Shown here: positions 4,946 to 43,778 of the stretch, one piece after another | Numbering within the stretch: the stretch's first letter is position 1 | Layout: the number at the start of each line of letters is the position of its first letter | NCBI GenBank assembly: GCA_964291265.2 | Contig: OZ219747.1 | Coordinates: forward strand, 3,168,001-3,232,000 | Length of the DNA stretch: 64,000 nt | Origin: Alphaproteobacteria bacterium | GTDB lineage: Bacteria; Pseudomonadota; Alphaproteobacteria; SP197 | Direction of reading: 5' to 3' | Made by a program: the position numbers and the translations under genes | The notes under the pieces: generated by a model | What the model saw: the letters and a program-made list of their open reading frames with translations, nothing else | Told to the model about the DNA's origin: nothing | The model's database searches: none

Positions 4946-5099
4946 CGGGGTGATCCACCGTCGCAACAAGCCGCCGTTCCTATCGCGCTTCCGGCATGTC
5001 GCCACCTGAAGGAACGCGACGAAGCCCATCGTGTGCCGCCGCTGATGGGTCAGCGTGAGGGAGAGGCCTTGACTGTCGGGGCCTCGCGGTTGGTGAGCA

Positions 5100-17998: not shown

Positions 17999-18073
17999 GG
18001 GCGCGTAGCTCAGCGGGAGAGCACTACGTTGACATCGTAGGGGTCGCTGGTTCAATCCCAGCCGCGCCCACCA
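17999..18073 (+). tRNA. tRNA-Val(GAC)
   Basis: GGGCGCG/CGCGCCC acceptor stem, anticodon arm CTACG-TTGACAT-CGTAG, GGTTCAATCC T-arm, encoded CCA. Confidence 0.97.
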
Positions 18074-19323: not shown

Positions 19324-19460
19324 TTCCGGGGTCAGGACGTCTGAACCCAGCCCGGTGCCGATCGGTCGTCGCACCCTCATCCAAGACAACAGGTCAGGCA
19401 GTACGGGTGTAAGCGTTCGGCCGTGCGGTGTTTGGGTCTTGCTGACTATCGTCTGAGAAA

Positions 19461-21112
19461 GGGTGTAGTTCTCGTATGGCGAAGCCAAGTCAATGATTTA
19501 TCACGGTCGTACGGTCGCGATGGAGCGGCAAATACGGGGTTTCGTGACAATTGCCCGTTGGACGAAGGCCGGATTTTGTCACGGTGGCAGGGCTTGGCGG
19601 TGGATGCGGGAACGCTCCGCACCGCAAGATGCGATATGATGCTGGCTTGAAACCACAACATCAGGAGCGCTCCCATGTCAGTGTCACAGCTTCGGCCTTC
19701 CGCGTCCATCGATCTTCTCGGCTTGCCGCCTCGGGTTGTCGAAGCGGTCACGCAAGTGACCGCGGTGTGTCATCGACAGCTTGGTTCAGAGCGCTCTGCC
19801 GAGGCCTTCGAGGAAGCGGAGCGGCGGGTGCTTGAGAGCGTGCACGCGCTTGGCTGCGAGATCCTGGGTGCCTGTGCCGAGGCCCGGGACGACGGTGCGC
19901 CCCGGATCGAACGGGACGGGCAGAACTGGTTCCGTGTGGCGCCGACGCCGAAGACGATCATGACCTCGCTCGGCCCGGTGACCTTTCGGCGTGCGCGCTA
20001 TCGCACCGGCGGGCACTGCCGGTCGCTGATGCCGGTGGACGAAAGCCTGGGCCTCGTCGACGACTACCTGACACGGCCGGCGGCTCAGCTTGGGCTGATG
20101 ATGATGGTCCACTGCACGGCGCGGGAAGCGGAGGCGTTCTTCGGCAAGCTCGGCGCCATGACGCCGTCTGTGAGCACCTTGCAGCGCTTGAGCCTGACCA
20201 TGCAGGAGCGTTGGGAACGTCTCGGCCCGCAGGCCCTGGATGGTATCCGGGAAGCCGAGGACATCCCGCAGGACGCGGTCACCGCCTCGGTCTCGCTCGA
20301 CGGCGTCATGGTGGCGCTGCGGGCCGGCGAGGACGGCCGTAGCGAGGCCTGCTGGCGCGAGGCGGCCTGTGGCACAGTCTCCTTCCACGACGCCGACGGT
20401 GAGCGCCTGAAGACCGTCTATCTCGGCCGCATGCCCGAGCGCGGCAAGTGCACGCTGAAGGCGCAGCTGGCAAGCGAGGTCGCGCATATCAGGCGCAAGC
20501 GTCCCGAGATCAGGATCAGCGCCATCGCCGACGCCGCCGCCGACAACTGGACCTTCCTCTCTGGTCTTGAACCCGAAACCGAGGTGATCGACTTCTGGCA
20601 TGCCTGCGAGCATCTGCGCGTGGTGGCCGACCATGCAGCGGCGCCCCACTGGTTCGAGAAGTACCGCGAGATCCTGCGTCACGACCCCCGCGGCATCGAC
20701 AAGGTGATCCGGGCGCTGCGCCACCTTCGCGACACCGCCAAGCCGGCGGGCCGAGCCGACATCGACAGGGAACTGGCCTTCTTCCGCAAGCATCGCCACC
20801 GCATGCGCTACCACGCACTGAAGCAACAGGGGATCGCCATCGGCTCGGGACTTGTCGAGGCAGCCAACAAGACCCTCGTCACACAGCGCATGAAGCGCTC
20901 CGGCATGCGCTGGCGCATCGTCGGCGGACAAGCCGTTCTCACCTTCCGCGCCCTGCTCAAATCAGGCCGCTTCGAGAGCGCGTGGACCGCCATGATCGAG
21001 GGCGACGACGCACCAGCCAACGACAACATCAACCCACATCACACCCCGGCGCCGGCCGCATGAGATGAAACAGTGGAACTGATTTTCAAATAGACATATA
21101 AAACTCACACCC
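19461..21112 (+). mobile_element. ISKra4-family insertion sequence
   Basis: Imperfect IRs gggtgtagttctcgtatg (19461) and revcomp gggtgtgagttttatatg (ending 21112); no TSD seen. Confidence 0.7.
19675..21063 (+). CDS. ISKra4-family transposase
   Basis: SLDGVMV, ADAAADNW, IDFWHACEHL, IGSGLVEAANKTLVTQRMKRSGMRW. Confidence 0.88.
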   Translation: MSVSQLRPSASIDLLGLPPRVVEAVTQVTAVCHRQLGSERSAEAFEEAERRVLESVHALGCEILGACAEARDDGAPRIERDGQNWFRVAPTPKTIMTSLGPVTFRRARYRTGGHCRSLMPVDESLGLVDDYLTRPAAQLGLMMMVHCTAREAEAFFGKLGAMTPSVSTLQRLSLTMQERWERLGPQALDGIREAEDIPQDAVTASVSLDGVMVALRAGEDGRSEACWREAACGTVSFHDADGERLKTVYLGRMPERGKCTLKAQLASEVAHIRRKRPEIRISAIADAAADNWTFLSGLEPETEVIDFWHACEHLRVVADHAAAPHWFEKYREILRHDPRGIDKVIRALRHLRDTAKPAGRADIDRELAFFRKHRHRMRYHALKQQGIAIGSGLVEAANKTLVTQRMKRSGMRWRIVGGQAVLTFRALLKSGRFESAWTAMIEGDDAPANDNINPHHTPAPAA

Positions 21113-21160
21113 TCCGTCATCAGAGGGGGTGAGTAGATACCACCGGGCAGTGATATCTCC

Positions 21161-21946
21161 ATGCCTTCCAAGGCGGACGAAATCCGGGCCTACGCCCTAG
21201 AGCGATACGTGCGGCCTTGGCGGGGCTCCGACGAAAACCGCCTCGTTATTCGTGCGGGCGACATCGTCAAAGGTATGCGGTTGCACAACGCCACGCCGAA
21301 CGTATGCAGTTCCCTTGCGAGCCGTAAGTTCCAGCACGATGCCGGTATCGTCCTCGTTCGTCGTGAGGGTCCGCATCAAAGCACGACCACAACGTTTCAC
21401 TATGAGCCCGTCCGATCGACCCTTGATCCTCCAACGCGCCCCGGAAATACTCCACCTCCCGCCCGAATCGTCGGCAATCGCGTAGCCACCGTCTGGGTCT
21501 CCGTCCCCGACGACTGCTGGCGGAGTGCCGATCTGTGTCTGGTTTCCTGTGTCAGCGTGAAGCAATCCGCCGCGGCACCGGCCAGGGACCTGTACGTTTC
21601 TCCCTGGTTTCAGAAAGCTCGCGCTTGCGTCGAAGCACTTGGTTGCCCGTGGTACATCCTGTCCGTGAAGCATGGGCTCCTTGATCCGGGATCGACGATC
21701 GAACCTTATGACGAGACGCTGAAGGCCATGCCGGTGTACCGGCGACGTACCTGGGCACGCGGTGTGATTGGGGACCTCGCTCCGCGCTTGGCGAGTGTCG
21801 ACACCGTGACCCTCTTCGCGGGAACGGCATATCGCGAGTTCCTTGAACCGGAATTGCGTGGTCAGGGGCTCAAGCTCTATGTACCGATGCAGGGAATGCG
21901 CATCGGCCAGCAGCTCTCATGGCTGTCCGGCCAGGACCGTTCGTGA
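21161..21946 (+). CDS. Two-domain protein: small N-terminal putative DNA-binding domain plus DUF6884-like domain
   Basis: N-term ADEIRAYALERYV..IRAGDI..PNVCSSL; Pro-rich linker; C-term LVSCVSVK..ARDLYVSPWF..ILSVKHGLL..IEPYDETL..PMQGMRIGQQLSWL. Confidence 0.7.
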   Translation: MPSKADEIRAYALERYVRPWRGSDENRLVIRAGDIVKGMRLHNATPNVCSSLASRKFQHDAGIVLVRREGPHQSTTTTFHYEPVRSTLDPPTRPGNTPPPARIVGNRVATVWVSVPDDCWRSADLCLVSCVSVKQSAAAPARDLYVSPWFQKARACVEALGCPWYILSVKHGLLDPGSTIEPYDETLKAMPVYRRRTWARGVIGDLAPRLASVDTVTLFAGTAYREFLEPELRGQGLKLYVPMQGMRIGQQLSWLSGQDRS

Positions 21947-22692
21947 ACGCCACTGAGCTGACGCCCGGCCGCATCGCCGATTCCCTTCGCTTCTACGCGC
22001 TTCTTTCACGCATCTCAGAGCGAACCGGTGGATATAGATATCTCGCGACCTGCGACGGGCGCATGGAGTGGCCTCGCCGCGGCGTGTACTTCTTCTTCGA
22101 GCCAGACGAGCCCCGAATCGATCCTGGCCTTGGTCTACGTGTGGTACGGATCGGCACCCATGCGCTGAAGCCGGCGTCCCGAACGTCGTTATGGAATCGA
22201 CTCTCGCAGCATCGGGGCAGCTCACGATCCGGCATGGGCAATCACCGTGGGTCGATATTTCGGCTGATCGTTGGCGCGGCGCTCGCGCGCCGTGCCGTTA
22301 CATCGTTACCGTCGAGTTGGGGAGTCGGCTCGGACACAAGCGCCGCCGCTCGTAAGCTCGGCTTGGACCGCTCGACCGTGCAGTGCGAAGAGGCCGATCT
22401 CGAGCGGCGGGTCAGCGAGTATATTGGCCAAATGCCGTTCCTGTGGCTCGGCGTCGACGACCCGCCGGGCCCGGCCAGCCTGCGCGGTGTGATCGAGCGA
22501 AACACCATCGCTTTGCTCAGCCACGCCCAAACTCCTGCCGTTGATACCCCGTCAGACCGGTGGCTCGGCGGGTTCAGTGATCGAGAGATGGTGCGCGCAT
22601 CCGGACTGTGGAACAATCATCACGTCGCAGAACCACACGATCCTTCATTTCTCGACGAGATGGACACGCTCGTAGCCCGCTTCTGCGAGTGA
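21943..22692 (+). CDS. Putative GIY-YIG-like nuclease
   Basis: RGVYFFF..RVVRIGTH..LWNRLSQH and a later IERNTI Glu; GTGA overlap with upstream gene. Confidence 0.6.
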   Translation: MNATELTPGRIADSLRFYALLSRISERTGGYRYLATCDGRMEWPRRGVYFFFEPDEPRIDPGLGLRVVRIGTHALKPASRTSLWNRLSQHRGSSRSGMGNHRGSIFRLIVGAALARRAVTSLPSSWGVGSDTSAAARKLGLDRSTVQCEEADLERRVSEYIGQMPFLWLGVDDPPGPASLRGVIERNTIALLSHAQTPAVDTPSDRWLGGFSDREMVRASGLWNNHHVAEPHDPSFLDEMDTLVARFCE

Positions 22693-22799
22693 ATTCCAGC
22701 GCTGCAATTCGCAGGCCTCGACTACCTGCCCGGTTACGTGCTCCGCTGCGTGAGCAGTACAGAGTCCGGGATCCATCTCCATCGAATTCTGCTTCGGTT

Positions 22800-23865
22800 C
22801 TCACGCCTTATCCGGGTCGGGCTGGAGTTTGCGGCCTTTGCCTTGCGCCTCGTCCCGGGTTCCGGCGGGCCCGCTCCGGCATTGCCTCAGGGTCTCGTGG
22901 AGCGTCTTCGCATCGTCCGTGACCAGTTCGACTCTGTGGCGCGCGGGCGGCTGATCTCGACGTAGAAGCTCTTCTGCGTCGACAGTTTCGGGGGTTTCGC
23001 CTCCATCACCGCGATCACCTTGTCGACGGTGCGCCCCTGAAAGGGATGCACGGTCGAGGCCCAAGCATGGCCGAGATGGCGCAACTGCGGGTCACTCTTG
23101 CCGAATTCGAGCATCCGGCCGTCGCCGAGCCGGAAGGCGACAACTTCGTCCGGCGAATAGTTCACCGCGACCGCTTTCTCGGCACTCGCATGGCCATGGT
23201 AGACCAGCCGCTCGGCCTGAAGACGAGGCTGCGCATGACGCCGTCGCGGGCGAGGCGTTGAGCGGATGTGGCCGTTGATCCCGATGCGGAGCGCATGGCT
23301 CGGCGTCACCGGCCCGGTGTTCTCGCGTTCGTGGGCGGAGAGCTTCAACAACCAGGGCGCGGCGGCCGCGCCAGCGAGGTTATCGGGTTTGACCTCCGCC
23401 CCCGGTCGCCGAGCTTTCCGAAGACCCTGCAGACCTCGTCGGCGAGGCTCGCCCGCACTGCCTCTTGCAGGTTGGTGTCCTCCTGGCGCAGAATCTCGTC
23501 CCTTGCCGCCGTTTTCATGCCGGCGGCCTGGAGCTGGGCGAAGGACTTATCGGCATCCACCGCGTCAAGCTGCTTCTCAACAGCCCACCGGCACCACGCG
23601 GGGTATGCGGATGGCGGCGGCGATCCGGAGCAGGTCGCGGGTCTGGACGGTCGAGGCAAGCGAGCCCTCGTCGACCCCCAGCATGGTCTTGCGGAACGCC
23701 GCGCGCATTTCCCTGGCGCCCTTCCGGGTCAGCCGGCCCTCGGCGACGCCGGCATTGCGGGCGAGGAAGCGCCGCAGGGTCTCGGTCTCGATCCAGGCTT
23801 CAGGCCGCCGACACGAGAGCCGCCCTTCGCGGCAAGCTGCCGGTCGAGGTTGAGCACCCATGGCT
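22800..23865 (-). pseudogene. TrwC/TraI (MOBF) relaxase-helicase C-terminal remnant
   Basis: Fragments in several frames: VDEGSLAST..DLLRIA, KQLDAVDA..FAQLQAAGMKTA..DEILRQ, HAWASTVHPFQGRTVDKVIAVM..QKSFYVEISR. Confidence 0.8.
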
Positions 23866-24134
23866 ATGCCGAGCGGAACGACGATCAGGCAGGCCGTGAA
23901 AGGGGGGCGAAGATGCGGAAACAGCTCTCGAGAACGTCGGCGATGTAGTTTTTTTCCACGATCAGGGTGATGAGGGCGCCAAAGATCTCCTGGGGCGCCG
24001 GGAGGAATCGCTGACTCTCTTCAGGGATGATGTGGTGACCGCGTGAGCGCCTTCAGGCAGATTGATGATGCGTTGATCGGGCAATTTAGTGGACATGAGC
24101 TTTCGCGCTGCGCTTGGTTTGCGGTTCTTGAAGG

Positions 24135-24998
24135 CTACTTGGAAGGGAAGGCTGGTGTTCGTGCCTTGAGGACGTCGTTCCAGTCTTTGTGTCCGTCTGG
24201 GGGTCTCATGCGGAGAGCTCTTGGGTCTTGGCTGACGAGGCGCTCGGCGGCCTGTTCTCCGACGGGATCGGCGTCGAAGGCGACGAGGATGCGCTTTGGC
24301 GTCCAGGCTTCGGCCCATGTTGGGAGACGGTAGGCGATGCCGGCGGTTGACAGGATCACGGTAGCGGATTGCCGACATTCCTTGAGGCACCATGCGGAGA
24401 GGGCGTCGATGGCGCTTTCGGTGATGATGATGGTGCGTGGCATGGAGCGGTCCACGGGGATCCAGAAGCTGCCGGCGGCCTTGCGTGATCCACGCGCCAT
24501 GGCTCTGTACTGCTTTCCGTCTGCGTTGGGGACGGTACCGACGATCTCGGCGCCGGAGAGGTCTCTTTGTGCGTTGGTGCATGTGAAGACGGCGTTTCTG
24601 CGTTCGTCGGCGGCGACGAGGCCGTGCTGTCGGCAAGCGTCCAGGCAACGGTCTGGCAGGCGGCGTTCATGGGCGAGGTAGTGGCGTACGACGTGCCAGG
24701 CTTCCTCGCAGTGCGTTGGTGTTCTCGGCCCCTTGCCGCCGGAGCGTGCGGTGAGGAGTGCGACGGCGTCGTTGAAGCTGCAGCGGTGTGCATGCATGAC
24801 GAGATCGATGGCGCCGCCACCGCCGGACTGGGTGATGTGGTCGAACCAGCGTTGTTGGTTGACGCTGATGACGGATCCGTGGCGCTTGAAGCGTCGCGGG
24901 TCGCGCGGGTCTCTTCGGTAGCCGAGCCGCAGGGCGAGTGGTTCGAGGGGCTGGTTGCGGATGTCATCGAGATGCTGATTGTCCCAGGACCGGATCAT
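24135..24998 (-). CDS. DUF3991/toprim-domain primase-like protein
   Basis: From ATG 24998: WFDH..GGGGAIDLVMH..FNDAV, ITESAIDALS, VAFDADPVGE, HKDWND. Confidence 0.85.
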   Translation of the reverse strand: MIRSWDNQHLDDIRNQPLEPLALRLGYRRDPRDPRRFKRHGSVISVNQQRWFDHITQSGGGGAIDLVMHAHRCSFNDAVALLTARSGGKGPRTPTHCEEAWHVVRHYLAHERRLPDRCLDACRQHGLVAADERRNAVFTCTNAQRDLSGAEIVGTVPNADGKQYRAMARGSRKAAGSFWIPVDRSMPRTIIITESAIDALSAWCLKECRQSATVILSTAGIAYRLPTWAEAWTPKRILVAFDADPVGEQAAERLVSQDPRALRMRPPDGHKDWNDVLKARTPAFPSK

Positions 24999-25033
24999 GG
25001 TCTGTCGAGCCTCCTGCGTGGTGGACGGGGGGT

Positions 25034-25098
25034 GGTTCCCGTTGGCGGTTCCCACCTGAACTCCCAGGGTGAACGGGAACCGGGAACCGGGAACCGCC
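25034..25098. repeat. GGGAACC heptamer cluster (iteron-like): 2 inverted plus 3 tandem copies
   Basis: ggttccc at 25034 and 25047; gggaacc at 25075, 25082, 25089; 10-bp IR ggcggttccc/gggaaccgcc. Confidence 0.8.
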
Positions 25099-25132
25099 TG
25101 GCGTCGGGGCGTTTTGCGCCTGGTTGTTGCGG

Positions 25133-26080
25133 TCAGGCTTTGGCGACGCGATAGGCACCGGGACCGTCCTGCGCGACACGTCCTTCCTGGACGAGCTTGG
25201 CCAGAAGCGTGGCGACGGTCGTGTTCCGTGTTGGGACGCGGTCCCGGACCTGGCGCAGCGAGAGCGGGGCATCGGCGTCGGCGAGGACCTGGACGATGCG
25301 CTGTTCGGGGGTTGGCGGCTGCGGCCTGGCGCCGTCTGGTTCCTGTTGCCGCAGCTGCAGGGCGGCTCCGTTGCCGCTGTCGGTGAGTTCGATGTCGAGA
25401 TCGGCGAGTCCGGGTGCGGCGCGGTGTTCGACGGTCATGAGGATGGTTTCGTGGCGGCGCCGCAGGTAGAGGTTGCTGTCGCCCCATGCGTGCAGCTCGC
25501 TGCTTCCGCGCAAGGCCTGTCCGGGCCGGCTGGCGGCGCTCTTGCGTGCGTGGTGGACGAGCAGCACGGCGGCGCCGGAGTGTCGCTGCACGTCGCGCAG
25601 GAAGCCGAGGATCGGCGCGATCTCGGCGACGGCGTTTTCGTCGACGCCGTGCAGGCGGACGAGGGGGTCGAGGATGAGCAGGCGGGAGCCGTGACGCTCG
25701 ACGGTCTCGAGCAGGCTCTGGCGGTCGGTTGGGTGGTCGAGGCGCAGTGCGGGGACGTCGATGACGGCGATGTCGAGGGTGTCGAAGTCGGCGCCGGCTG
25801 CGGCGGCGATGCCCTGGAGGCGGCGTCGCACGATGTGGCCGGCGTCCTCGGCGGCGAACATGAGCACCGGTCCGGGGTGCACGGCCGGGAAGCGGCGCAG
25901 ACAGGGGACGCCGGCGGCGACGGCGACGGCGAGATCGAGGGCGAGGAAGGACTTTCCGCACTTGGGTTCGCCGCCGATGATGCCGACGGCCTCGCGGCCC
26001 CACAGGCCGTCGACGAGCCACTGCCCCTCGGTTGGCCGGTCCTCGAGTTCGGCCGGGCTGCGGGTTGGCAGGCCGATCAT
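25133..26080 (-). CDS. RepA-like AAA (RecA-fold) helicase with C-terminal winged helix
   Basis: WLVDGLW, GEPKCGKS Walker A, AAED, LILDPL, LVHHARK, LRGSS; C-terminal wHTH-like segment. Confidence 0.85.
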   Translation of the reverse strand: MIGLPTRSPAELEDRPTEGQWLVDGLWGREAVGIIGGEPKCGKSFLALDLAVAVAAGVPCLRRFPAVHPGPVLMFAAEDAGHIVRRRLQGIAAAAGADFDTLDIAVIDVPALRLDHPTDRQSLLETVERHGSRLLILDPLVRLHGVDENAVAEIAPILGFLRDVQRHSGAAVLLVHHARKSAASRPGQALRGSSELHAWGDSNLYLRRRHETILMTVEHRAAPGLADLDIELTDSGNGAALQLRQQEPDGARPQPPTPEQRIVQVLADADAPLSLRQVRDRVPTRNTTVATLLAKLVQEGRVAQDGPGAYRVAKA

Positions 26081-26907
26081 CGTGTGCGCCTCGGCGGGAT
26101 GGGTTCGCCCCAGGTTTCGAGGAAGAGCTTTTCGTCGAGCACCTCGCGGTCGGTGTCGAGGGCGACAGCGAGGAGGTTGTCGGCGAGGATGGTCAGGGAG
26201 CGCGGATTGCCGTCTGCATGGACGACGAGGGTCTCCTTGAGGCCGGGGGTCATGAGGCCTGGATTGCCGGCGGCGTCGAGCAGGTGGTCGAGCAGGCGGA
26301 GCAGTTCGTCGGGTTCGCAGCGCGTCATGACGAGGCGTTGACGGACCCGCGAGGCGACGGCTTGCAGGTCGGGGCTGTGCAGCTTGGCGAGCAGGCGGCT
26401 GTCGCCGGCCAGGACGACGCTGAGGATGGCGCGCGAGTCGAACTCCGTGGAGGCGAGCAGGCGCAGTTCGGTGAGCACGGCCTGCGGCATCTCCTGGGCC
26501 TCGTCGACGAGCAGGACCGGGCGCATGCGGGTGTCCTCGAGATGGGTGAGCCAGCACTCGCGCAAGGCCTTGAAGCCGGCCCAGAGGTTCCGGCGCAGGG
26601 TCGTGATGCCGAAGAGGTCGGTCATCTCGCGGTAGAAGTCTGCGGTGCTCGACGAGGGATGGGCGAGAAGGGCGACGTCGAGGCCCTCCGCGGTCTCGAG
26701 ACGCTCGTCGAGCAGGCGCAGGGCGACGCTCTTGCCGGTGCCATGCTCGCCGGCCACCACGGCGAAGCCGCCCTGGCGCACGAGCTGACGCTCGATCCTG
26801 CGGCAGAAGCTGTCGATCGCGGGCGTTGCGAGAAGGCCCTCGACCGGCAGGTCGGCGGCGAAGGGGTTCCACTTGAGGCCGTAATGGGTGAGGTGTTGGC
26901 GGTTCAT
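26077..26907 (-). CDS. ExeA-family AAA+ ATPase (TnsC/MuB-like transposition helper)
   Basis: YGLKWNPF, GEHGTGKS, LLVDEAQEM, VLAG, GNPR. Confidence 0.88.
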   Translation of the reverse strand: MNRQHLTHYGLKWNPFAADLPVEGLLATPAIDSFCRRIERQLVRQGGFAVVAGEHGTGKSVALRLLDERLETAEGLDVALLAHPSSSTADFYREMTDLFGITTLRRNLWAGFKALRECWLTHLEDTRMRPVLLVDEAQEMPQAVLTELRLLASTEFDSRAILSVVLAGDSRLLAKLHSPDLQAVASRVRQRLVMTRCEPDELLRLLDHLLDAAGNPGLMTPGLKETLVVHADGNPRSLTILADNLLAVALDTDREVLDEKLFLETWGEPIPPRRTR

Positions 26908-28421
26908 GACATGTCTCCCTGATCGTTGTTGTCCTTGCCTTCGTCGTCCGGGCCGGCATCCTTGCCGAAGGGCAACCATGCCGGGGGCAGGCCGGTGGCG
27001 TCCTGCTCGTCGCGCAGGCGCTTGAGCAGCGGCGCCGGCCCGGTCTGTGGCTTCACCTCGTCGTCTTCTCTCCGGCGCCCGGTCCGGCGGCGGAGCCCCT
27101 CGGCGTTGCGAGACTTGTCCACCGGACGCAGGGTCGAGATGCGGTCCCCGGTGCGGCCGTCGACCATGTCGATGCCGGAGAGGTCCCAGCGGGCGACGCG
27201 CAGGTCGATCTCGCGCAGGTGGCGCCACGGCGCCGGCAGTTGATAGCGGACACTCGCCACCGTCACCGTGGCGTCGGAGCGTCGCACCTTGCGACGCACC
27301 TTGATGCGGAAGGCGGCCCGGAGTTCGCTGCTGTCCGGGCATGTCCGCGAGGCGTCCTCGCTGTCGATCACGCGCCTGAGCGGCGTGACCCCCGTCTCGC
27401 GGTGTACGCGGCGGTGATACTCGCGCTCGACCCAGATGACGGTGGCGTCGTTCAGGTCCTGCAGGGTCAGGGTCTCGACGTTCTCGAGCATCGCCATCAG
27501 GCGGCCCTCGACCTGGGCGAACAGCACCTCCTGCTTGCCGTTCTGGTACGGGCTGCGGACAAGCGTGTGGTGGTGCAGCACGCCGAGGGCGTGCAGTCCC
27601 TCCTGCACCTCCCCGGCCGTCATCGCCGATCCGTTGTCGGTCAGAAGGGACCGCGGCAGCCCTCGCTTCATGAAGGCCTGGCTGATGCCGTGAACGAAGA
27701 TCTCCGTGGTCTCCCCGAGATACCACTGCATGTGGCAGACGAGACGCGAATGGTCGTCGATGAAGCTGAGCAGGATCGGCGTCCTCCACTCCCCGGACGG
27801 CGTCAGCACGCGACAGGTCCGCGCATGGTGGAAGTCGGCGTGCCACAGGGCATGGCTGCGCGAGACCTCGTAGCTCAGCACCTCGCGCCCCTCGACCGCA
27901 GGCCGCTCCGCTTCACCACCGAACTTCCGCTGCCGCCGCCGCCGCTCCAGGCCCGCCGAACGCATGACCCGGGTCAGCGTCGCATAGGACGGCATCGGCC
28001 CGAGCGAAGGGTCGGCCTCGACCAGCGCGCAAAGGTTGTCGTGGTGGAGCTGAACCGACCACGTGGGGTGCGCCCTGTACTGGTCGCGCAAGGCCGCCAT
28101 CAGCAGGGGTGAGACGCTCCGCGCACGACCGGCGTCGCAGCGCACCCGACGGCGCAGCGCCCGCACCGGATCCCGGTCGGCCGACCGCGCCTTGTAGTAC
28201 CAGCGCTCGATCGTCGACACCGAGAAGCGGATCGTGCCGCCCCTGACGGGATGCTCCCAGTCCCGCCGCGACAGCCGTTGAAGCTCGGCCCGCAGACCCC
28301 CCTTCGGCGGCGGCGACGCCAGCAGCGGGCCAACCACCGCAAAGCGCAGCCGCGTCCAGGCGTCCCCGGCGTCCGCTTCGTCCTTCGTCACCACGACGGC
28401 CTTCCTCCCTCGTCGTCCCAT
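26904..28421 (-). CDS. DDE-type integrase/transposase (rve core, Mu-like C-terminus)
   Basis: N-terminal HTH (STIERW), LWHADFH, IDDHSR, TDNGSAM, PYQNGKQE, RKVRRSDATVTV. Confidence 0.9.
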   Translation of the reverse strand: MGRRGRKAVVVTKDEADAGDAWTRLRFAVVGPLLASPPPKGGLRAELQRLSRRDWEHPVRGGTIRFSVSTIERWYYKARSADRDPVRALRRRVRCDAGRARSVSPLLMAALRDQYRAHPTWSVQLHHDNLCALVEADPSLGPMPSYATLTRVMRSAGLERRRRQRKFGGEAERPAVEGREVLSYEVSRSHALWHADFHHARTCRVLTPSGEWRTPILLSFIDDHSRLVCHMQWYLGETTEIFVHGISQAFMKRGLPRSLLTDNGSAMTAGEVQEGLHALGVLHHHTLVRSPYQNGKQEVLFAQVEGRLMAMLENVETLTLQDLNDATVIWVEREYHRRVHRETGVTPLRRVIDSEDASRTCPDSSELRAAFRIKVRRKVRRSDATVTVASVRYQLPAPWRHLREIDLRVARWDLSGIDMVDGRTGDRISTLRPVDKSRNAEGLRRRTGRRREDDEVKPQTGPAPLLKRLRDEQDATGLPPAWLPFGKDAGPDDEGKDNNDQGDMS

Positions 28422-28443
28422 GGGAGGAAGGCCCTATACGGTC

Positions 28444-29058
28444 CTATGTCATCGCACTACAGGCACTCTCTGCGGGCGGCGACAGACCCTCGACGATCCT
28501 GCAGAAGCCGGTCCACGGCATGAGCCAGACCAGGCTCCGCAGAAGGCGCGATCGAAACGATCCGCCGCGCATCAAGCGCACCAGGGCCACAAGCGGAGGC
28601 TCGTCCGCCTCCACCGCCAGATCGCCACGTTTCCAGCGCCACGCCGCCGTCGCCGGGAACCTCTCCCGCCACCATCGACGCCACCGGCCAAGCGTCCTCT
28701 CCGGGATGCCAGACATGCGGCTCGCCTTCGCCAGGGGAACACTGCCGCACAGAACCAGGAGGCTCGCAGCCAGGTACACCGGCGCCGCACGGAACCTCCG
28801 GCCGAAGAAGCGCACCGAGGGCGGAGTCGTCCGGCTCCTGCACTCAGCACAGCAGAAGCTGAAGCGGCGGTTGTCGCCGCGAAGAGCAGGCGCAAGCGCG
28901 TGCGGCTTGCGCGGATACCGCGCACTGTGAAGGCGACCGCCGCAATGCGGGCATCCCTCCAGGCGGCAGCGCTCCGCCTCGGCCGCATCAATCCTCTCAA
29001 GGAGAGGCCAGACATGAGCGCAGGAAAGTATGGGACCCGGGAAGGAAACGTGCGACAT
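28444..29058 (-). CDS. Zn-finger/HTH protein (DUF6431-like) of DDE-ExeA elements
   Basis: CPHCGGRLH..YPRKP, FSFCCAECRSRTTPPSVRF, RTLGRWRRWW. Confidence 0.7.
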   Translation of the reverse strand: MSHVSFPGPILSCAHVWPLLERIDAAEAERCRLEGCPHCGGRLHSARYPRKPHALAPALRGDNRRFSFCCAECRSRTTPPSVRFFGRRFRAAPVYLAASLLVLCGSVPLAKASRMSGIPERTLGRWRRWWRERFPATAAWRWKRGDLAVEADEPPLVALVRLMRGGSFRSRLLRSLVWLMPWTGFCRIVEGLSPPAESACSAMT

Positions 29059-29095
29059 TGACTGGCCTCCGGTGATCTCACCGTCACGGAGACAA

Positions 29096-29132
29096 GCCCC
29101 TCGGCCGACTTCTTGCAAGTCGGTCGAGGGGC
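29096..29132. other. 16-bp stem hairpin upstream of the element's first gene
   Basis: gcccctcggccgactt-cttgc-aagtcggtcgaggggc, one G-T pair. Confidence 0.75.
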
Positions 29133-29526
29133 AAACACACCAGACCAGCAGACAATTCAAGCAGAAACGACGGAATCCACGTCAAAAATCGCGCAAACGC
29201 TTACCGCGTTCCTCGATGATGAAGGTTCCGGTTGCTCCAGCGAGACCGGGGACGAGGGCGGTTCTGTCCAATGGCACGGTGCGCGATTCGAAGAGCGATG
29301 CACTGCGCCTGGCGATCCGATTCATATCCTTGCCTCGGCGCTTTCGTAGTCTGACCACGCCGGATTCCGATCGTCCGGGCCCTTGCCACTCATGGATGGA
29401 ACCTCTCCACGGCGGTGACGATATCAACGGTCGCACATGCCGATCAAGGAGCCGCGGCGACACCTTGAATTGAGAGGGTCGATATGCGGAAATGGCCTCT
29501 CTGCAACCGAATCCGGGAGAGACCCG

Positions 29527-30408
29527 GTGATCAGACAGTTCGACTACCTGCGCCCCGACAGCATTGATGCGGCAATCGCCATGAAGGTCCGTCACGGGGA
29601 GCGCGCCCGCTACTGGGCCGGTGGTACGGACCTGATGCTGCAGTGGCGTCGAGGTGAGGTGGTGATCGAACACTGCATCGATCTGACACACCTCACCGGG
29701 CTTGACGGCATCGAAGCGGTGTCTGGAGAAATCAGGATCGGGGCGATGGCCACCCTCGACGATCTCCACAGTGCCGCCTTCATGCATCCTGTCATGAAGG
29801 CACTTGGTGACACCGCTCGGCTGATGTGCACGAAACAGACCCGCACCCTTGCCACGGTTGGCGGCAACATGTGCAATGCCTCGCCGGGAGCGGATCTTTC
29901 ACCGCTCTTCGTGGCGCTTGAAGCCCGCTGTCTGATTCGGGGGCCGAAGGGGCGGCGCGAAGTTTCGATGGAGGATTTCCTCACCGGTGTGAACAGGACT
30001 GATCTCGGTGAGGAAGAGTTGCTGTGCGCCATTGTCGTGCCGGTACCGCAGGGGGAGCGCGAAGCAAGCTATCGCAGAGTTGCCCGCACGGTGGTCGACA
30101 TTGCCCTGGTGAGCGCGGCAGTGTCGTTGACCGCCGATGGCGGCGCCATCACGGACGCGCGCATTGCACTGGGTTCCGTGGCGCCGGTTCCGGTTCGCGT
30201 GACGGAAGGTGAGAAGGTTCTTTCCGGCAGGCTTCTGGATGACATTGACGCGGCTCGCCTCGAAGAAGCTGCCGATCATGCCGCGACGGTCGCGCGACCG
30301 ATTTCGGATATTCGTGCCGGTGCCGGCTACCGTACGCGGATGTGCCCGGTGCTCGTCCGTCGTGCCCTTGCTGATGCACTGGGGCGGCTCGGAGGAGACG
30401 AAGGATGA
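29527..30408 (+). CDS. Xanthine dehydrogenase family FAD-binding subunit (CoxM/XdhB-like)
   Basis: AGGTDL, ATVGGNMCNASP, PISDIRA; GTG start. Confidence 0.9.
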   Translation: MIRQFDYLRPDSIDAAIAMKVRHGERARYWAGGTDLMLQWRRGEVVIEHCIDLTHLTGLDGIEAVSGEIRIGAMATLDDLHSAAFMHPVMKALGDTARLMCTKQTRTLATVGGNMCNASPGADLSPLFVALEARCLIRGPKGRREVSMEDFLTGVNRTDLGEEELLCAIVVPVPQGEREASYRRVARTVVDIALVSAAVSLTADGGAITDARIALGSVAPVPVRVTEGEKVLSGRLLDDIDAARLEEAADHAATVARPISDIRAGAGYRTRMCPVLVRRALADALGRLGGDEG

Positions 30409-30872
30409 TTCGCATGACCGTCAACGGCCGGGCCTTCGATCTCGATGCGAGACCGCACGAGCGCCTTTGTGATCTCCTGAGACGGGCCCTGGGACTCCAT
30501 GGAGTGCGTGTATCGTGCAGCGAAGGAGAATGCGGTTCCTGCACGGTGATCATGGATGGCGAACCCGTCACGTCCTGCCTTGTCCTCGCCATGCAGGCGG
30601 AAGGCCGCGAGATCGTGACTATCGAGGGGCTTGGCAACGAGGATGACCTCCACCCGATCCAAGAGGCGTTCATCGAGGAACAGGGGTTCCAGTGTGCATT
30701 CTGCACACCGGGTTTCATCATGGCGGCGAAAGCCTTCCTTGACGAAAACTCCGATCCGACGGAAGCAGAGGCCGCCATGGCCATGAGCGGAAACATCTGC
30801 CGCTGCGGCGCTTATCCTTACATCGTGAAGTCCGTTATGAATGCGGCGGCGCGGCTGAGGGAAGGGGAGTAG
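30405..30872 (+). CDS. (2Fe-2S) subunit (CoxS/XdhC-like)
   Basis: CSEGECGSC, QCAFCTPG, GNICRC. Confidence 0.93.
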   Translation: MIRMTVNGRAFDLDARPHERLCDLLRRALGLHGVRVSCSEGECGSCTVIMDGEPVTSCLVLAMQAEGREIVTIEGLGNEDDLHPIQEAFIEEQGFQCAFCTPGFIMAAKAFLDENSDPTEAEAAMAMSGNICRCGAYPYIVKSVMNAAARLREGE

Positions 30873-30906
30873 GGTTCGAACACCGGTTGACCAAGGGAGA
30901 AGAACG

Positions 30907-33261
30907 ATGGCAGCAGCAGGACACCGGTCTGCCTGGAGGATTGCCGGCAAGGGCATTCCCGTGAAGGATGCCCGGGAAAAGGTCACGGGTTCACTGAAGT
31001 ACGCGGTCGACCTCGAAGTCCAGGGCATGGTGCATGGCAAGATCCTGCGCAGTCCCCATGCTCATGCGCGCATCGTCTCCATCGACACCACGAGGGCCGA
31101 GGCGCTTCCCGGCGTACTCGGCGTTATCACCCATCACGACACGCCCCAGAATGTCTGGGAGAACGCTTGGTTCAACTATCGCGGCAAGATTCTGGACGGC
31201 ATCGCCCGCTTTCACGGTGACGACATGGCGGCGGTCGCTGCTGTCAGTGAGGAGGTCGCCGAAGCGGCGCTCGAACTCATCGATGTCGAATACGAGATCC
31301 TCAACGCGGTCTTTGATCCGGAAGAGGCGATGCAACCCGACGCCCCTCAGATACGCGAGGAAGGCAACCTACGTGAACCCTATGTCGTCAAGTGGGGCGA
31401 TGTCGCAAAGGGAGCCGACGAGGCGGATTTCATCGTCGAGACCGAGGTCCGTTTCGCCAGCCAGCAAATGGCGCCGTTGGGTCGCAATGCCTGCATTGCA
31501 GAATGGAACGGTGATCGTGTGACCCTCTGGACCTCGTCGCAGACGCCGTCGGAACTGCGTGACGGCATCCACGAGGCCTTCGGTGTCCCGCTCAGCCGGG
31601 TCCGTGTCATCGCACTGCCGTCGGGAAGCTCCTTCGGCAACTGGTGGAGCGCCAACTTCATGCTCATCACGGCGCTGCTCGCCCGCAAGGTGCGCAAGCC
31701 GGTCAAGATCGAGCTTTCCAACGAGGAGTGCATGGCGACGGTCAAGCGCCGGCACATGGAGATTTCCCGGGGCCGTATGGGATGCCGCAACGACGGCACC
31801 CTGACCCTGGCGGAATTTGATCACATCATCGACAACGGTGGTTATGGCTTCAAGGATGACGTTGGCTTCTTCTGTGTCGACAACTGGGGCCGCGCGGAAC
31901 ACGGGCACTACGCCATTCACGGGGTCAACACGAACCTCCTGACCGCAGGCTGCATGCGTGCGGTCGGTGACGTGACGCTGGGCTCGGTCGTGGAAAAGCT
32001 GGCCGACATGTGCGCTATCCGCCTTGGCATGGATCCGGTGGAATTCCGTCTGAAGAACCAGATCAAGCCTGGCGAACGCCTGCGCATGCAGCACAGCCGG
32101 CAGTACATGAAGGGATCGCTTGAGCAGTATCTGGAGGGTATTTCCGAGGAGCAAAGGCAGGAGTGGCCGAAGCTCTTTCACCTGTCGAGCGGATCTACCG
32201 ATGAAATCCTGCGCAAGGGCGTCAATGCCTTCGACTGGTCGTCGAAATGGAAGGGCTGGGGTGTGCCCTATGCTGTGGACGGACCCAGGCGCAGGGCGGT
32301 GGGTGTTGGCACTGGAGCCCACGTCTGCGGCGTCGAGTTCGAGGGCAATGTCTCCGCCGTGGTGCGCATCAATCCGGATGGAAGCGCCAAGGTTCACTGC
32401 GCTGTCGGCCGACAGGGGCAGGGGAGCGAGACAACCCAGGCCCAGGTGGCGGCGGAAGAACTGGGCATTCCGTTCGACAAGGTGGAGATCGAGACCGGTG
32501 ACACCGATTCCTGCCCTTGGAGTCACGGTTCGCTGGCCAGCAACACCATGTACCGCGTTGGTTGGGCGACACGCGCTGCAGCCAATGACGCCAAGCGCCA
32601 GTTGCTGGACATTGCGAGCCGGGAATTCTTCGACTCACCCCCTCACGAACTCGATGTGGTCGATGGTGTCATCTGCTCCAAGGACCCCAGCAAGCGGAAC
32701 ATCCGCATCACGGTGGAGGAGGCGCTCAATCACTTCCGGGGTACCGACGCGCTTGGTCAGGCATCGTCGATCACCGGCAGGCCGCAAGGCCCCATGCCGC
32801 CGGCCAGCACATTTGCCAGGCACTTCGCGGCGCACTTCGTGGATGTCGAGGTCGACATCGAGACCGGCGAGATCAGGTTGCTGGACTTCCTGGCGACGCA
32901 GGACAGCGGCACGGTCATGAACCCCCAGGTCATGAAGAACCAGATGATCGGTGGGGCCATCTGCGGAGCCGGGTTCGCCATCTATGAGGCGCTGTCCTTC
33001 GACGATGACGGCCGGATCCTCAATGCCAACCTTCTCGACTACAAACTCCTGCGGGCAGCCGATTTTCCGCTGCGCGGCGATGTCATCTACGGGGATTCCT
33101 ACGACCCGGTGGGCCCCTTTGGCGCCCGCAGTGCCGGGGAGGCGCCGGCAGCTGCATCTGGTCCGGCCATCGCTCAGGCTGTCTACAATGCAGTCGGCAC
33201 CTGGGTCGACATGCCCATGACCCCCGAAAATGTAGTCGCCGCACTCGACGCCCTGCACTGA
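30907..33261 (+). CDS. Xanthine dehydrogenase family molybdopterin-binding large subunit
   Basis: KVTGSLKYAVD, RSPHAHA, GMDPVEFRLKN, GQG, SAGEAP. Confidence 0.92.
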   Translation: MAAAGHRSAWRIAGKGIPVKDAREKVTGSLKYAVDLEVQGMVHGKILRSPHAHARIVSIDTTRAEALPGVLGVITHHDTPQNVWENAWFNYRGKILDGIARFHGDDMAAVAAVSEEVAEAALELIDVEYEILNAVFDPEEAMQPDAPQIREEGNLREPYVVKWGDVAKGADEADFIVETEVRFASQQMAPLGRNACIAEWNGDRVTLWTSSQTPSELRDGIHEAFGVPLSRVRVIALPSGSSFGNWWSANFMLITALLARKVRKPVKIELSNEECMATVKRRHMEISRGRMGCRNDGTLTLAEFDHIIDNGGYGFKDDVGFFCVDNWGRAEHGHYAIHGVNTNLLTAGCMRAVGDVTLGSVVEKLADMCAIRLGMDPVEFRLKNQIKPGERLRMQHSRQYMKGSLEQYLEGISEEQRQEWPKLFHLSSGSTDEILRKGVNAFDWSSKWKGWGVPYAVDGPRRRAVGVGTGAHVCGVEFEGNVSAVVRINPDGSAKVHCAVGRQGQGSETTQAQVAAEELGIPFDKVEIETGDTDSCPWSHGSLASNTMYRVGWATRAAANDAKRQLLDIASREFFDSPPHELDVVDGVICSKDPSKRNIRITVEEALNHFRGTDALGQASSITGRPQGPMPPASTFARHFAAHFVDVEVDIETGEIRLLDFLATQDSGTVMNPQVMKNQMIGGAICGAGFAIYEALSFDDDGRILNANLLDYKLLRAADFPLRGDVIYGDSYDPVGPFGARSAGEAPAAASGPAIAQAVYNAVGTWVDMPMTPENVVAALDALH

Positions 33262-33431
33262 GACACGGGACAGGACACCGGAGATCGCGGTGGCCGGGGT
33301 ATCCGGGTTGCCGACGTGCCTCCCGGATGACATGAAGGCACCGGTGGTCTCACCTGCTGCCACGTCTCATGCCAAGGGCGCCCGTGTCGAACGATGAGCG
33401 CGAGAAACCAATCGTTGTCCGAGATCCTAGG

Positions 33432-35385
33432 CCGAAGTTCCAGCGTCGATCAAGTGCAACTGCTTGATATAAATGGCATTCGATGGATCTCAGAGGCGTC
33501 TGACTGGGTACATCACGGCTTCACGCCCAGGAGCTTGAGTGCTTTTCTCTGGAGCGGCGTGGGCCGCGTGGTGACCTGGAAGGGTTGGGCGCCCGCAAGG
33601 CGGGGCGCCACGGTGTTGCGGGTGATGGTCGCGAGATCATCGAGGAGAGTGCGGAAGCTGTGCACCGGATCACCCCCGGGTGTCCTCTTGGTTGCCGCCT
33701 TGGCCCGGGCGCTCGCCGAGACTTCTGCCGGCGCCACGACGGACGGCCGCCGGGCCTCGGCGCCTTCGGCATCCTCGTCGTCGAACAGCATGGGCTTCAG
33801 TTTCTGGCGCATGTGCCATTCGATGTAGTAGGCGAGCATGCACAGGAAGACATGGGCGCGGACCCGGGGTTCGGTGCGGTGGTAGACGGGGCGGACCTTC
33901 AGATCCACGGTCTTCAGGCTGCGGAAGGCCCGTTCCACCGAACTCAGCCGCTTGTAGGCGCGCACTGTGCCGGGACCGTCGAGCTCGCTCTGCGGCAGGC
34001 TGGTGCGGATCACGTAGAGGCCGTCGAGCCTGGCCTCGGCGGCGATGGCAGCCTCATCGCGCCCATAGGTGAAGACACCCTCGTCGTCGATGGACCACGT
34101 GAAGTGCTTCGCCATCTTGTACTTGCCGATGACCTTGCCGACCCTCTCCCCGATCTTGTCGGCACCCTTGAGACGGCGCTTGTCGCGCCGTGTCGCTGCG
34201 GCGATCGGTTCAAGCAGGGCCTCGGTGGCCTCGAGCAGTTCCTGGCGCTTGCGGGCCCGGTCCTCGGCCAGCAGGGGGTTGCGGCAGACCATGAGGCGTT
34301 CGCCGGGATACGCATCGCTGGTGATCTCCACCAGGTCCCTCTCGTCGAAGAGCGACATCTCGACGTCACCCGCCTCCACCAGTGAACGGATGGCCGGTCC
34401 CCTCAAGGCGCTGATCCAGTCCAGGCCTGCGGGCTTCACCTCCTCGCGTATGCGCGCCTCGGTCAGCATCCCCCGGTCTCCCACCAGCACCACCTTCGCC
34501 AGGGAGAAGCGCTCCTGCAGCGTGGTGATCTGTGAGGCAACCGTCCCGGGGTCCGCCGTGTTGCCGGGGAACACTTCCACCGACACTGGACAGCCGTCCC
34601 GATCGCACAGAAGGCCGAACTCGATCTGCAGCTTGCCCTTCTTGCCATCCCGGGAATGACCCCTCCTTGCCAGGGGACACGCTCTCCCCTCCATCCATAC
34701 CGAGGTCAGGTCATAGAGCACCAGGCAGCCTTCTTTGAGGCGCTGCTTCGCCAGGGACCGCTCGATCCTCTCCTGACGCTCCAGGAGCCAGTCCATGGCG
34801 CCATAGAGGGCGTCCTCGTCCATCTCCGCATCGAGGACCTCGCCCAGGGTGCTGACCGCCGTGGCCTCGGCCAGCCCCCTGGCCGTGGCCAGCTTCGAGG
34901 CGGGCTCGAGGATGCGTGCCACGATCATGGCCAGGACCTGATCGCGCTCAGGCGAGGGCTTCGGGTCGATCAACCTGTCCAGTCCCAGCTTCTTCAGGGT
35001 TCCCAGCACCGCGGCGACATGCCCATGGGGGAGGGAGCGGACGATGTCGAAGGCATCGTCGAGATGTCGGACTGCTGTTCCTCCCTTGAGGAGGATGCGC
35101 AATCCCTCGACGAGAGTGGGGGACCACTTGGAGAGGTTGGCGATGGTGCGCTTCTTGACCTTTCCGTTTTCGCGATAGGACTCGCGGAGCAGGATGGCGG
35201 GCGGCGAGGAGCGGTTGGGGACGGCTTCGATGTACATGGCTACTGTACATAGGCACGGCACTGCCGTGTGTCAAGCACAAAATGCATCCGTACATGGGTA
35301 CATTGTGAAGTCCGTCAAACCCGATAAACCGCGCAAGATCAACGACTTGACGCGACTTCCAGCTGGAAAACGTCCGGAACTTCGG
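33432..35385 (-). mobile_element. IS1634-family element copy 1, 6-bp TSD CCTAGG
   Basis: IRs ccgaagttcc/ggaacttcgg; cctagg at 33426-33431 and 35386-35391. Confidence 0.93.
33513..35237 (-). CDS. IS1634-family transposase
   Basis: LYDLTS, GHSRD, GNTAD, VGDRGM, VERAFRSLK, VRAHVFLCMLAY. Confidence 0.93.
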   Translation of the reverse strand: MYIEAVPNRSSPPAILLRESYRENGKVKKRTIANLSKWSPTLVEGLRILLKGGTAVRHLDDAFDIVRSLPHGHVAAVLGTLKKLGLDRLIDPKPSPERDQVLAMIVARILEPASKLATARGLAEATAVSTLGEVLDAEMDEDALYGAMDWLLERQERIERSLAKQRLKEGCLVLYDLTSVWMEGRACPLARRGHSRDGKKGKLQIEFGLLCDRDGCPVSVEVFPGNTADPGTVASQITTLQERFSLAKVVLVGDRGMLTEARIREEVKPAGLDWISALRGPAIRSLVEAGDVEMSLFDERDLVEITSDAYPGERLMVCRNPLLAEDRARKRQELLEATEALLEPIAAATRRDKRRLKGADKIGERVGKVIGKYKMAKHFTWSIDDEGVFTYGRDEAAIAAEARLDGLYVIRTSLPQSELDGPGTVRAYKRLSSVERAFRSLKTVDLKVRPVYHRTEPRVRAHVFLCMLAYYIEWHMRQKLKPMLFDDEDAEGAEARRPSVVAPAEVSASARAKAATKRTPGGDPVHSFRTLLDDLATITRNTVAPRLAGAQPFQVTTRPTPLQRKALKLLGVKP

Positions 35386-35654
35386 CCTAGGGGACAATGT
35401 GGACGATCAGGTCGCTGCATGCGACCACCGCATGCTGGGTGCCTGCGCCCGCGAACTCGGTCGCAACGGACAGGGACTGTCTGCCAACGCGCAGTCTGCT
35501 TCTCGAAGGTAGCGGCATCGGAACATGCTGACGAGGGCTGTCTCGATGGTCTTCGCAGCCGGGGTCATGAAGCCGGTCGGCGGGCGGAGGCGATTGTATC
35601 CGCGGAGAACGCGGCGGATAATGGCCCGATGTATGCGGAGTGCGGAACGCTAGA

Positions 35655-37608: not shown

Positions 37609-38006
37609 GCTAGACGCCACCTCGCGTCTGTCGTAGGCGATGTTCAAGTGCGTGGCGTGTGGCCATGCGGACCTGAATGCGGCCCGCAACGACAGGCGTC
37701 GGGGACAGGTCACCTGCACGGGGAGGGCGTTTCGCCGTCAGGCGCTCCGATGATCCGTAAAACGGATCGGAGACTGGTGACGTGAGCCTTTCAGCCAAGG
37801 ATGCAAGTCCCCGTGCAGAGCCGGTTGTTCTTCGCTAACAGTCGCAGTGTGACATCGACGATGCAATCGACGCCATCCGATTGAAGCAAGCTAGCCGGTT
37901 GCGCACGCCTTCGTCGATGCGCTTGAGGGGTTCACCACAGATCGCTGTACGGCCGAAGAGTCGCTCGCCGCGTTACGCTCATGATCTGGGCATGTCCGCC
38001 ACCCGG

Positions 38007-43688: not shown

Positions 43689-43778
43689 TGGCGGATGGGG
43701 TGGGATTCGAACCCACGAGACGCTGTGACGCCTGCCGGTTTTCAAGACCGGTGCCTTCAACCGCTCGGCCACCCATCC
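43689..43778 (-). tRNA. tRNA-Ser(TGA)
   Basis: GGATGGGTGGCCGAGCGGTTGAAGGC..CCGGT-CTTGAAA-ACCGG, long variable arm, GGTTCGAATCC, CCA; 90 nt. Confidence 0.96.

Follow-up and report, generated by a model that had tools for sequence, protein, structure and literature searches.

A Tn6049-group transposon with a linked helicase, a candidate replication origin and an optional primase-like gene

The DNA analysed here, 64,000 nucleotides of contig OZ219747.1 from an Alphaproteobacteria bacterium (assembly GCA_964291265.2, positions 3,168,001 to 3,232,000; hereafter the window), contains a single transposon of 5,160 bp at window positions 24044-29203. It encloses five co-oriented minus-strand open reading frames (ORFs), which lie within 24135-29058. 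An initial annotation, made from the sequence alone, had proposed a self-replicating DDE transposon at 24135..29132, consisting of genes for a zinc-finger protein, a transposase, an ATPase, a helicase and a primase. All five genes are present in that place, and so are the two ATGA overlaps by which transposase and ATPase (26904-26907) and ATPase and helicase (26077-26080) were said to be coupled. The block is also richer in GC than its surroundings, as had been suggested (68.1% versus 64.1% and 62.7% in the 5-kb flanks). The proposed span does belong to one transposon, although the true ends lie slightly outside it, at 24044 and 29203.

These ends were defined from genomic copies and empty-site contigs. 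A search of the organism's own genome recovered six copies of the element that are more than 99% identical, plus fragments. All six start with TAAGCGTT, end with GGCGCTCA and have their own matched 5-bp target duplication; four of them are 5,160 bp long, with differences at 15-30 positions, while the other two are split by a nested 5.3-kb element. For the copy in the window the duplication is CCGCG (plus strand), found in identical form beyond the downstream end (24039..24043) and beyond the upstream end (29204..29208). Contigs of runs X2 and X3, from related samples, hold the empty site, joining 24037 to 29203 and skipping 5,165 bases. On the minus strand, the upstream (left) end (29174..29203) reads 5'-TAAGCG, and thus starts with TA and not TG, where relatives read 5'-TGAG(C/A)G. 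The downstream (right) end (24044..24073, minus strand) reads CATCAA-N11-CGCTCA-3', and the two ends form a short imperfect terminal inverted repeat. The CA terminus and the subterminal (C)CATCAA-like motif are common to relatives and to the known transposon Tn6049, and we predict that the motif is a transposase binding site.

Between the ends we found no genes for capsid or conjugation functions, and none for a resolvase or TnsA, which agrees with the initial annotation as regards capsid and conjugation, and domain and PHROG searches found no DNA polymerase among the five proteins. A sigma-70 promoter scan returned 0 sites. The idea that a transposon had merely landed in a plasmid remnant, with its termini between 26080 and the replication genes, was rejected, as the ends and the duplication enclose both helicase and primase. 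Broken pieces of a relaxase-type helicase (AAA_30, UvrD_C_2) do occur nearby at 22801-23900, outside the end at 24044. Decayed older relatives of the element were seen at L004:4684-5520 (contig G000:C1) and at loci L003 and L005, one of them with most of the primase gene deleted.

The first three genes form the transposition core. The Cys-rich protein encoded at 28444..29058 on the minus strand (open from 29160) combines zinc-finger and helix-turn-helix (HTH) features. It matches no Pfam family above cut-off and no TniQ model in Pfam or NCBIfam, and appears DUF6431-like from its scores of 0.96-0.97 against Atlas clusters, 32-64% of whose members carry DUF6431. No pairwise similarity was found between the zinc-finger ORFs of the three transposon lineages discussed below. 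The 505-aa DDE transposase (26904..28421, minus strand) matches rve at 40.9 bits, with D196, D262 and E298 invariant. It scores 110.2 bits against the IS481 model NCBIfam NF033577, under the cut-off of 224, and the IS481 family has one transposase gene against the five genes here; we therefore do not place the element in that family. The third gene (26077..26907, minus strand) encodes a 276-aa AAA+ ATPase of the ExeA/TnsC/MuB-like kind (AAA_22, 67 bits; phrog_296, DNA transposition protein). The element shares with IS21 the pairing of a DDE transposase with an AAA+ helper, but the helper there is IstB, whereas our ATPase has no IstB (PF01695) match and is of the AAA_22/ExeA type, which sets it apart from IS21. 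When the PDB was searched by sequence, transposase and ATPase matched nothing beyond retroviral integrase cores and noise, and no relative of the transposase was found in viral contigs. The search of plasmids returned 22 records, of which 18 are from Cupriavidus.

The closest described system is Tn6049. The Tn6049 copies of Cupriavidus metallidurans CH34 carry the same first three genes in the same order, at 46% (over 137 aa of the first ORF), 47.5% and 53% identity, and their termini agree with those printed for Tn6049 (PMC4739549). In both elements the zinc-finger ORF, rve transposase and ExeA-like ATPase make up one operon, and both are multicopy, with 12 copies of Tn6049 in CH34 (PMC2864759). 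They also share TG...CA ends, a related subterminal motif and a short target duplication of 4-6 bp, given as 4 bp for Tn6049 (PMC4739549) and measuring 5-6 bp in the two Tn6049 copies compared here. Tn6049, which occurs also on the Pseudomonas aeruginosa plasmid pHS87a, differs in having, within 3.5 kb, a fourth ORF of only 71 aa where our element has helicase, iteron array and primase; a search of Tn6049 found no helicase or primase match. By sequence, the zinc-finger/DDE/ATPase core is that of a Tn6049-group member, and the studied element, at 5,160 bp and with no such small fourth ORF, is a larger variant. In the transposase tree Tn6049 nests among helicase-bearing rows with modest support (SH-like approximate likelihood ratio test, SH-aLRT, 84; open fork), and it may be a reduced form of helicase-bearing kin.

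The gene that follows the ATPase (25133..26080, minus strand) encodes a 315-aa RepA-like RecA-fold helicase with a C-terminal winged helix (AAA_25 at 128.7 bits plus a weak C-terminal HTH). K43, E78, D138, R191 and R220 are invariant over 93 diverse rows. The best solved relative is RSF1010 RepA (1g8y, E 2.1e-12), and the tail matches winged-helix domains weakly. The predicted helicase model was poor (predicted local distance difference test, pLDDT, 55.9) and was not used in fold searches. No helicase relative was found in plasmids at E 1e-15.

The helicase is tied to the transposition genes in both search directions. Among the best 80 of 563 loci with transposase relatives (15 genomes, 16 element types), the helicase directly follows the ATPase in 80/80. 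Conversely, of 490 helicase loci the best 80 were examined; in 74 of these the ATPase is the gene immediately upstream, the remaining six having less than 150 bp of upstream sequence, and wherever enough sequence is available the transposase (55/55) and the zinc finger (38/38) are there as well. Both samples consist of top matches, so that they speak for these loci and not for how often the helicase is absent across the whole family. The linkage extends to a far clade, whose transposases share no more than 45-52% identity with the query. Over eight pairs, the ratio of nonsynonymous to synonymous substitution (dN/dS) is 0.15-0.48 for the helicase, 0.30-0.41 for the primase and 0.22-0.41 for the transposase, showing that helicase and primase are under purifying selection similar to that on the transposase. 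Judged from these sequence comparisons, the helicase is a core gene of the transposon family. The primase is not: it follows the helicase in only 13 of the 80 transposase-anchored loci (in 5 types, out of 15 whose sequence extends far enough) and also travels without it, and the five-gene set as a whole is not what is conserved. Elements with four genes measure 4.35-4.43 kb and the five-gene type compared 5.19 kb, with ends TGAG(C/A)G...CTCA.

The family is large: of 7,999 candidates that were scored, 7,078 are transposase homologues, and close relatives are found in records of five phyla. Several related genomes hold from at least 6 to 24 copies. In a random sample of the host phylum the transposase was found at E 1e-60 in 0/300 other genomes, and in a sample of the host family in 3/32.

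Just after the helicase stop lies an array of inverted hexamer-type repeats (25034..25095, minus strand), with three copies of GGTTCCC, a 21-bp spacer and two copies of GGGAACC. The array pattern fits 74 of the 82 distinct helicase loci that were left when near-duplicates were removed from 160, as against 266 of 15,743 random 200-mers and 1 of 16,400 shuffles. Four of the eight misses have similar repeats by eye, one has none and three are phage loci. Three phage loci encode a 39-42% identical helicase and have no transposase match; GGTTCC/GGAACC-type repeats are clear at the helicase 3' end in two of the three, and terminase-like ORFs stand near the helicase in the two whose ORFs were listed. 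The array is absent from all six helicase-less elements tested. Its arms are unequally spaced and so make no clean hairpin.

The two arms share their middle base in 71 of 82 loci (T in 41, C in 18, A in 12), and this base tracks the winged-helix residue after the recognition-helix arginine: proline goes with A in 10/10, asparagine or histidine with C in 12/14 (two uncalled) and threonine with T in 43/49. Array types A and C are interleaved on the helicase-core tree, for example in the pairs L085/L095 and L041/L090. Such covariation between arms and winged helix is as expected of a helicase-bound origin, and the array is likely the helicase's own replication origin. The idea of a replication function, already put forward in the initial annotation, is strengthened by this origin-like iteron array next to the helicase. 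At two loci (L048 and L099) an additional short ORF follows the array; the frame tested has no Pfam match.

A similar arrangement is known from the pri-rep-ori module of Staphylococcus aureus pathogenicity islands (SaPIs) and other phage-inducible chromosomal islands (PICIs). The C-terminal winged helix of SaPI Reps binds short iterons that lie just downstream in opposite directions (PMC9371898). At the level of sequence our element matches this plan in its winged-helix-tailed helicase, in the inverted penta- or hexanucleotide iterons directly downstream and in the primase gene alongside. It differs in that the helicase there is of superfamily 3 or 6 (SF3/SF6) and here of the RecA-fold AAA_25 (RSF1010 RepA-like) kind, in that the primase here lies downstream and the spacer is not AT-rich, and in that the islands use a site-specific integrase and a helper phage in place of a DDE transposase.

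It is conceivable, although we consider it highly improbable, that the AAA_25 protein has a non-replicative role as a branch-migration or transpososome-remodelling ATPase or as an autoregulator, with the array acting as operator or terminator. AAA_25 RecA-fold proteins are indeed labelled both helicase and RecA-like recombinase in phage records, and the array, lying between the helicase and primase genes, sits in a possible operator position. However, it is kept even where no gene follows, and no terminator-like site was called there. Furthermore, the best solved relative of the protein is a replicative helicase, that of RSF1010, and three of the 21 longer homologues scanned are fusions, one each, to Prim-Pol, DnaB-N and DnaA-N.

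The last gene (24135..24998, minus strand) is an optional module encoding a 287-aa primase-like protein with DUF3991, Toprim_2 and Toprim_3 above cut-off. Over 97 rows the toprim residues E194, D198 and D242 are invariant and D244 nearly so. The predicted fold (pLDDT 91.7) matches the structures of DnaG (2au3, E 4.6e-8) and T7 primase (1nui). The protein thus resembles DnaG-type primases in its toprim acidic residues and RNA-polymerase-domain fold, but lacks their CHC2 zinc ligands.

What follows the array varies between elements. Of the 82 distinct helicase loci, a toprim gene is present in 10, a 140-nt hairpin segment in 12 and a second conserved segment in 39; 21 have neither gene nor segment, and no locus has both. 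The comparison is informative for the near clade of 27 elements, in which primase (10) and hairpin segment (12) occupy the same place and never occur together, with five elements having neither. The two segments (L014:12420-12560 and kin; L110 at about 4950-5040 and kin) are unrelated to each other, conserved, hairpin-rich and non-coding, and both stand after the array in primase-less elements; we regard them as candidate single-strand origins or transfer origins. In the 140-nt segment two-sided changes were seen in 5 of 46 pairs, which is weak support for the hairpin given that the rows are related. Some copies carry TAGCG(A/C) at the hairpin tip, near the CS-6 motif of single-strand origins (PMC10378824). 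Rfam gave 0 matches in 20 loci and 0 in window positions 21000-31000. A third conserved segment follows the array at L152 (about 1900-1990), L158, L161 and L127, with CTGAGGAG and CTGGATGAG...GAAAC words that look hammerhead-core-like by eye. The idea that the downstream segments include a ribozyme was unsupported, the three third-segment loci tested having no Rfam match at gathering score. In one far-clade element (L156:4254-5189) a CHC2 zinc-finger DnaG-type primase gene stands after the array, replacing the DUF3991 toprim gene.

MobV-type primase domains prime transferred single strands, and the closest plasmid relatives of the toprim protein are the C-terminal parts of MobV relaxases, at up to 36.5% identity. 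The toprim gene might be a captured MobV primase domain and the hairpin a transfer origin, so that circles would pass by conjugation and the helicase module would be a tolerated passenger. The crossing of phyla by these elements, and the swapping of modules between transposase lineages only 26-29% alike, would suit such a mobilisation aid. We nonetheless think it quite improbable. The element has no relaxase domain, and the hairpin segments have no meaningful plasmid match (short matches only, the best at E 0.05 and at 1e-4 over 37 bp). Moreover, a helicase kept across 45-52% identical transposases, with an operon overlap and purifying selection, is unlike ordinary cargo.

The swapping of modules is seen in two other lineages. 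A second rve/ExeA lineage, with transposase and ATPase 26-29% identical to ours, has members that bear a helicase of 67-73% identity together with the array, others with the primase on its own, and others with both. Its primase-only elements (L203-L205 and L208-L210, in genomes G005, G013, G009 and G002) measure 4.0 kb, have TGTT...AACA ends and have neither helicase nor array; G005 alone contains 15 full primase matches. The third lineage is represented in the host genome, outside the window, by an element of 5,326 bp (L001:48-5373, G000:C2:2284347-2289672) with 34 matches longer than 4 kb. Its IstA-type transposase and IstB-type ATPase (PF01695) identify it as IS21-like; an upstream Cys-rich ORF precedes them and a DUF3991-toprim gene, 33% identical to ours, lies downstream, with no helicase or array. 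It has TG...CA ends and mostly 5-bp duplications, which match in 27 of the 31 copies with both ends, and it sits within two of the studied element's copies and also within its own sequence. Elements like it occur in G004 and at L057 too. From these comparisons the replication modules are interchangeable between transposon lineages. The 3' end of the IS21-like element holds a duplicated block of about 350 bp with a short ORF.

The target duplications bear on how the element moves. Of 70 related copies, 60 keep a matched duplication, which is 5 bp long in 40 and 4 bp in 20; with 6/6 of the element's own copies this makes 66 of 76. These matched duplications, taken with the lack of resolvase and TnsA, speak for simple insertion in which a free intermediate, most probably a copied circle, is used, and it is on this basis that we infer a circle pathway for the family. 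In copy-out-paste-in transposition the passage from figure-eight to double-stranded circle requires DNA replication (PMC7780238), a step that our element would share, and IS21 is listed among the circle-forming families (bioRxiv 2023.06.07.543989).

The initial annotation had also considered replicative transposition, and Mu-like cointegrate formation, in which the element's own helicase and primase would stand in for the host restart primosome at strand-transfer forks, has to be weighed here. The TnsB/TnsC-like pair, the missing TnsA, the TG..CA-type ends and the 5-bp duplications are those of the TnsBC class, for which a replicative mode is reported (Hsieh et al., bioRxiv 2024.11.13.623437) and whose cointegrate pathway often goes with a resolvase, and PHROG gave matches to phage transposase and transposition-protein families. 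The fit is poor, however: there is no resolvase, intrachromosomal cointegrates should separate duplications that are in fact mostly matched, and a Shapiro fork needs no internal iteron origin. Since cointegrates between sister chromosomes or with plasmids, when resolved by RecA, also leave matched duplications, these points weaken Mu-like transposition without removing it, and we consider it improbable. The element further differs from TnsBC transposons in its extra DUF6431-like gene and its replication module, and TtrA and the product of a gene beside sbcCD, helicases named in that report, are proteins other than the helicase here.

The reading that we prefer, and that in our judgement is about evenly poised between right and wrong, is that helicase, array and primase are a built-in initiator-helicase, origin and primase carrying out the replication step of copy-out transposition. 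The transposase would nick one end and join it to the other, giving a figure-eight as in copy-out elements. The helicase would then bind the inverted hexamers through its winged helix, load itself without a host loader and unwind the element. The displaced single-stranded circle would be primed by the element's primase or, in primase-less kin, by a host enzyme at the hairpin segment, and host polymerase would complete the double-stranded circle. Finally, transposase and TnsC-like ATPase would insert the circle with a 5-bp duplication, the donor being retained. A helicase with its own origin fits an element that unwinds without host loaders, and a primase in the helicase-less IS21-like element fits priming of a displaced single-stranded circle. 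As the element has no polymerase, it would be self-priming at most and not self-synthesizing.

Several observations weigh against this copy-out reading. The regular expression for the array and both hairpin models were derived from the same sequences that they score. The match of residue and base has exceptions, threonine occurring with A in three loci and with C in two, and winged helix and array lie within 150 bp of each other, so that recombination exchanging both together could look like co-evolution. At 57% GC (12/21 G+C), the 21-bp spacer is unlike the AT-rich melting region of SaPI origins. The N-terminal domain of the primase has a zinc-binding-domain-like fold without the zinc cysteines, and 21 of the 82 elements have neither toprim-type primase nor hairpin (one with the CHC2-type primase and three phage). 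Tn6049 reaches 12 copies (PMC2864759) with no helicase or primase, which means that the modules are not required for core mobility. The contigs of four runs (X1-X4) contain no end-to-end circle junction, although contigs drop rare forms and so leave room for circles. In run X1, possibly that of the source sample, the depth of the element is 314-360 against about 55 for the flank, or 5.7-6.5x, which fits the six chromosomal copies with no excess.

The last two results also leave the autonomous replication of an excised circle, as first proposed for this element, with no direct support. A circle that replicates itself from the helicase-bound origin after excision or copy-out, amplifies as a transient plasmid and then re-inserts or spreads to other cells seems to us rather unlikely. 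Array, winged-helix helicase and primase would supply the three parts of a SaPI-type replicon, and the copy numbers in related genomes and the spread over five phyla would be in keeping with amplification and transfer. On the other hand, depth equals chromosomal copy number, no junction was seen, and primase-only elements reach 15 to 34 copies with no helicase or array, so that high copy number needs no origin. For the IS21-like element, depth is about 2,050 against 44-55, or 37-46-fold, close to its 34 long matches plus fragments, and the contigs of X1-X3 hold no circle junction. No terminal repeats were found in 80 metagenome contigs.

A broader proposal can be made only tentatively, and we think it more probably wrong than right. 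The elements could be widespread DDE/AAA+ 'replicon transposons' with a self-loading helicase, a cognate iteron origin and a swappable priming module, whose circles would replicate in plasmid fashion before insertion. One winged-helix residue would set origin specificity, and co-resident elements would not fire each other's origins.

Other systems share parts of this design. Casposons and Polintons are self-synthesizing transposons that carry replication genes; they encode a DNA polymerase, unlike our element, which uses DDE/AAA+ integration machinery. The IS excision enhancer (IEE) is likewise a primase-helicase that acts on copy-out insertion sequences (ISs), but it joins an archaeo-eukaryotic primase (AEP) PrimPol to a UvsW-like helicase domain, has a gene separate from the IS and promotes the loss of ISs, whereas here a toprim primase and a RepA-like helicase lie inside the element. 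The IncQ plasmid RSF1010 offers a RepA helicase, strand-displacement logic, a plasmid primase and single-strand origins (PMC10378824). Our element differs from it in that no separate RepC initiator was detected, in its toprim primase and in its integrated, transposon lifestyle.

A literature search for the architecture among openly accessible papers found no published description. The transposon core is known, and the replicon-like module inside it appears undescribed. Accounts of copy-out transposition usually assign the conversion of the joined-end intermediate into a double-stranded circle to host replication functions that they do not name. With elements that carry helicase, origin and primase themselves, this step could be tested by means of a few point mutants. 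Should their circles replicate as well, they would connect transposons, phage satellites and plasmids in bacteria, and would offer a small replicon whose specificity might be coded by one residue. Members of the family occur across phyla and are active in genomes where up to 24 copies were sampled, and the family may shape genome instability in uncultured bacteria.

The surroundings of the element are rich in mobile DNA, and the host genome as a whole shows a strong IS expansion. Further multicopy insertion sequences lie at window positions 19453-21112, 33426-35395 and 35650-37617; they comprise a UPF0236-type element, with up to 15 further matches, and two DDE_Tnp_1 elements in tandem, with up to 24. 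Adjoining the transposon, a two-gene unit at 21161-22692 matches the PADLOC candidate defence system PDC-M57 (A: DUF6884, E 3e-34; B: E 3e-78). The mobile-element-rich stretch starts just downstream of a tRNA-Val gene (17999-18073), and a tRNA-Ser gene lies at 43689-43778. Further along, two neighbouring genes (54963-57257 and 57485-60085) encode proteins with RTX calcium-binding repeats, the first of them in the lowest-GC part of the window.

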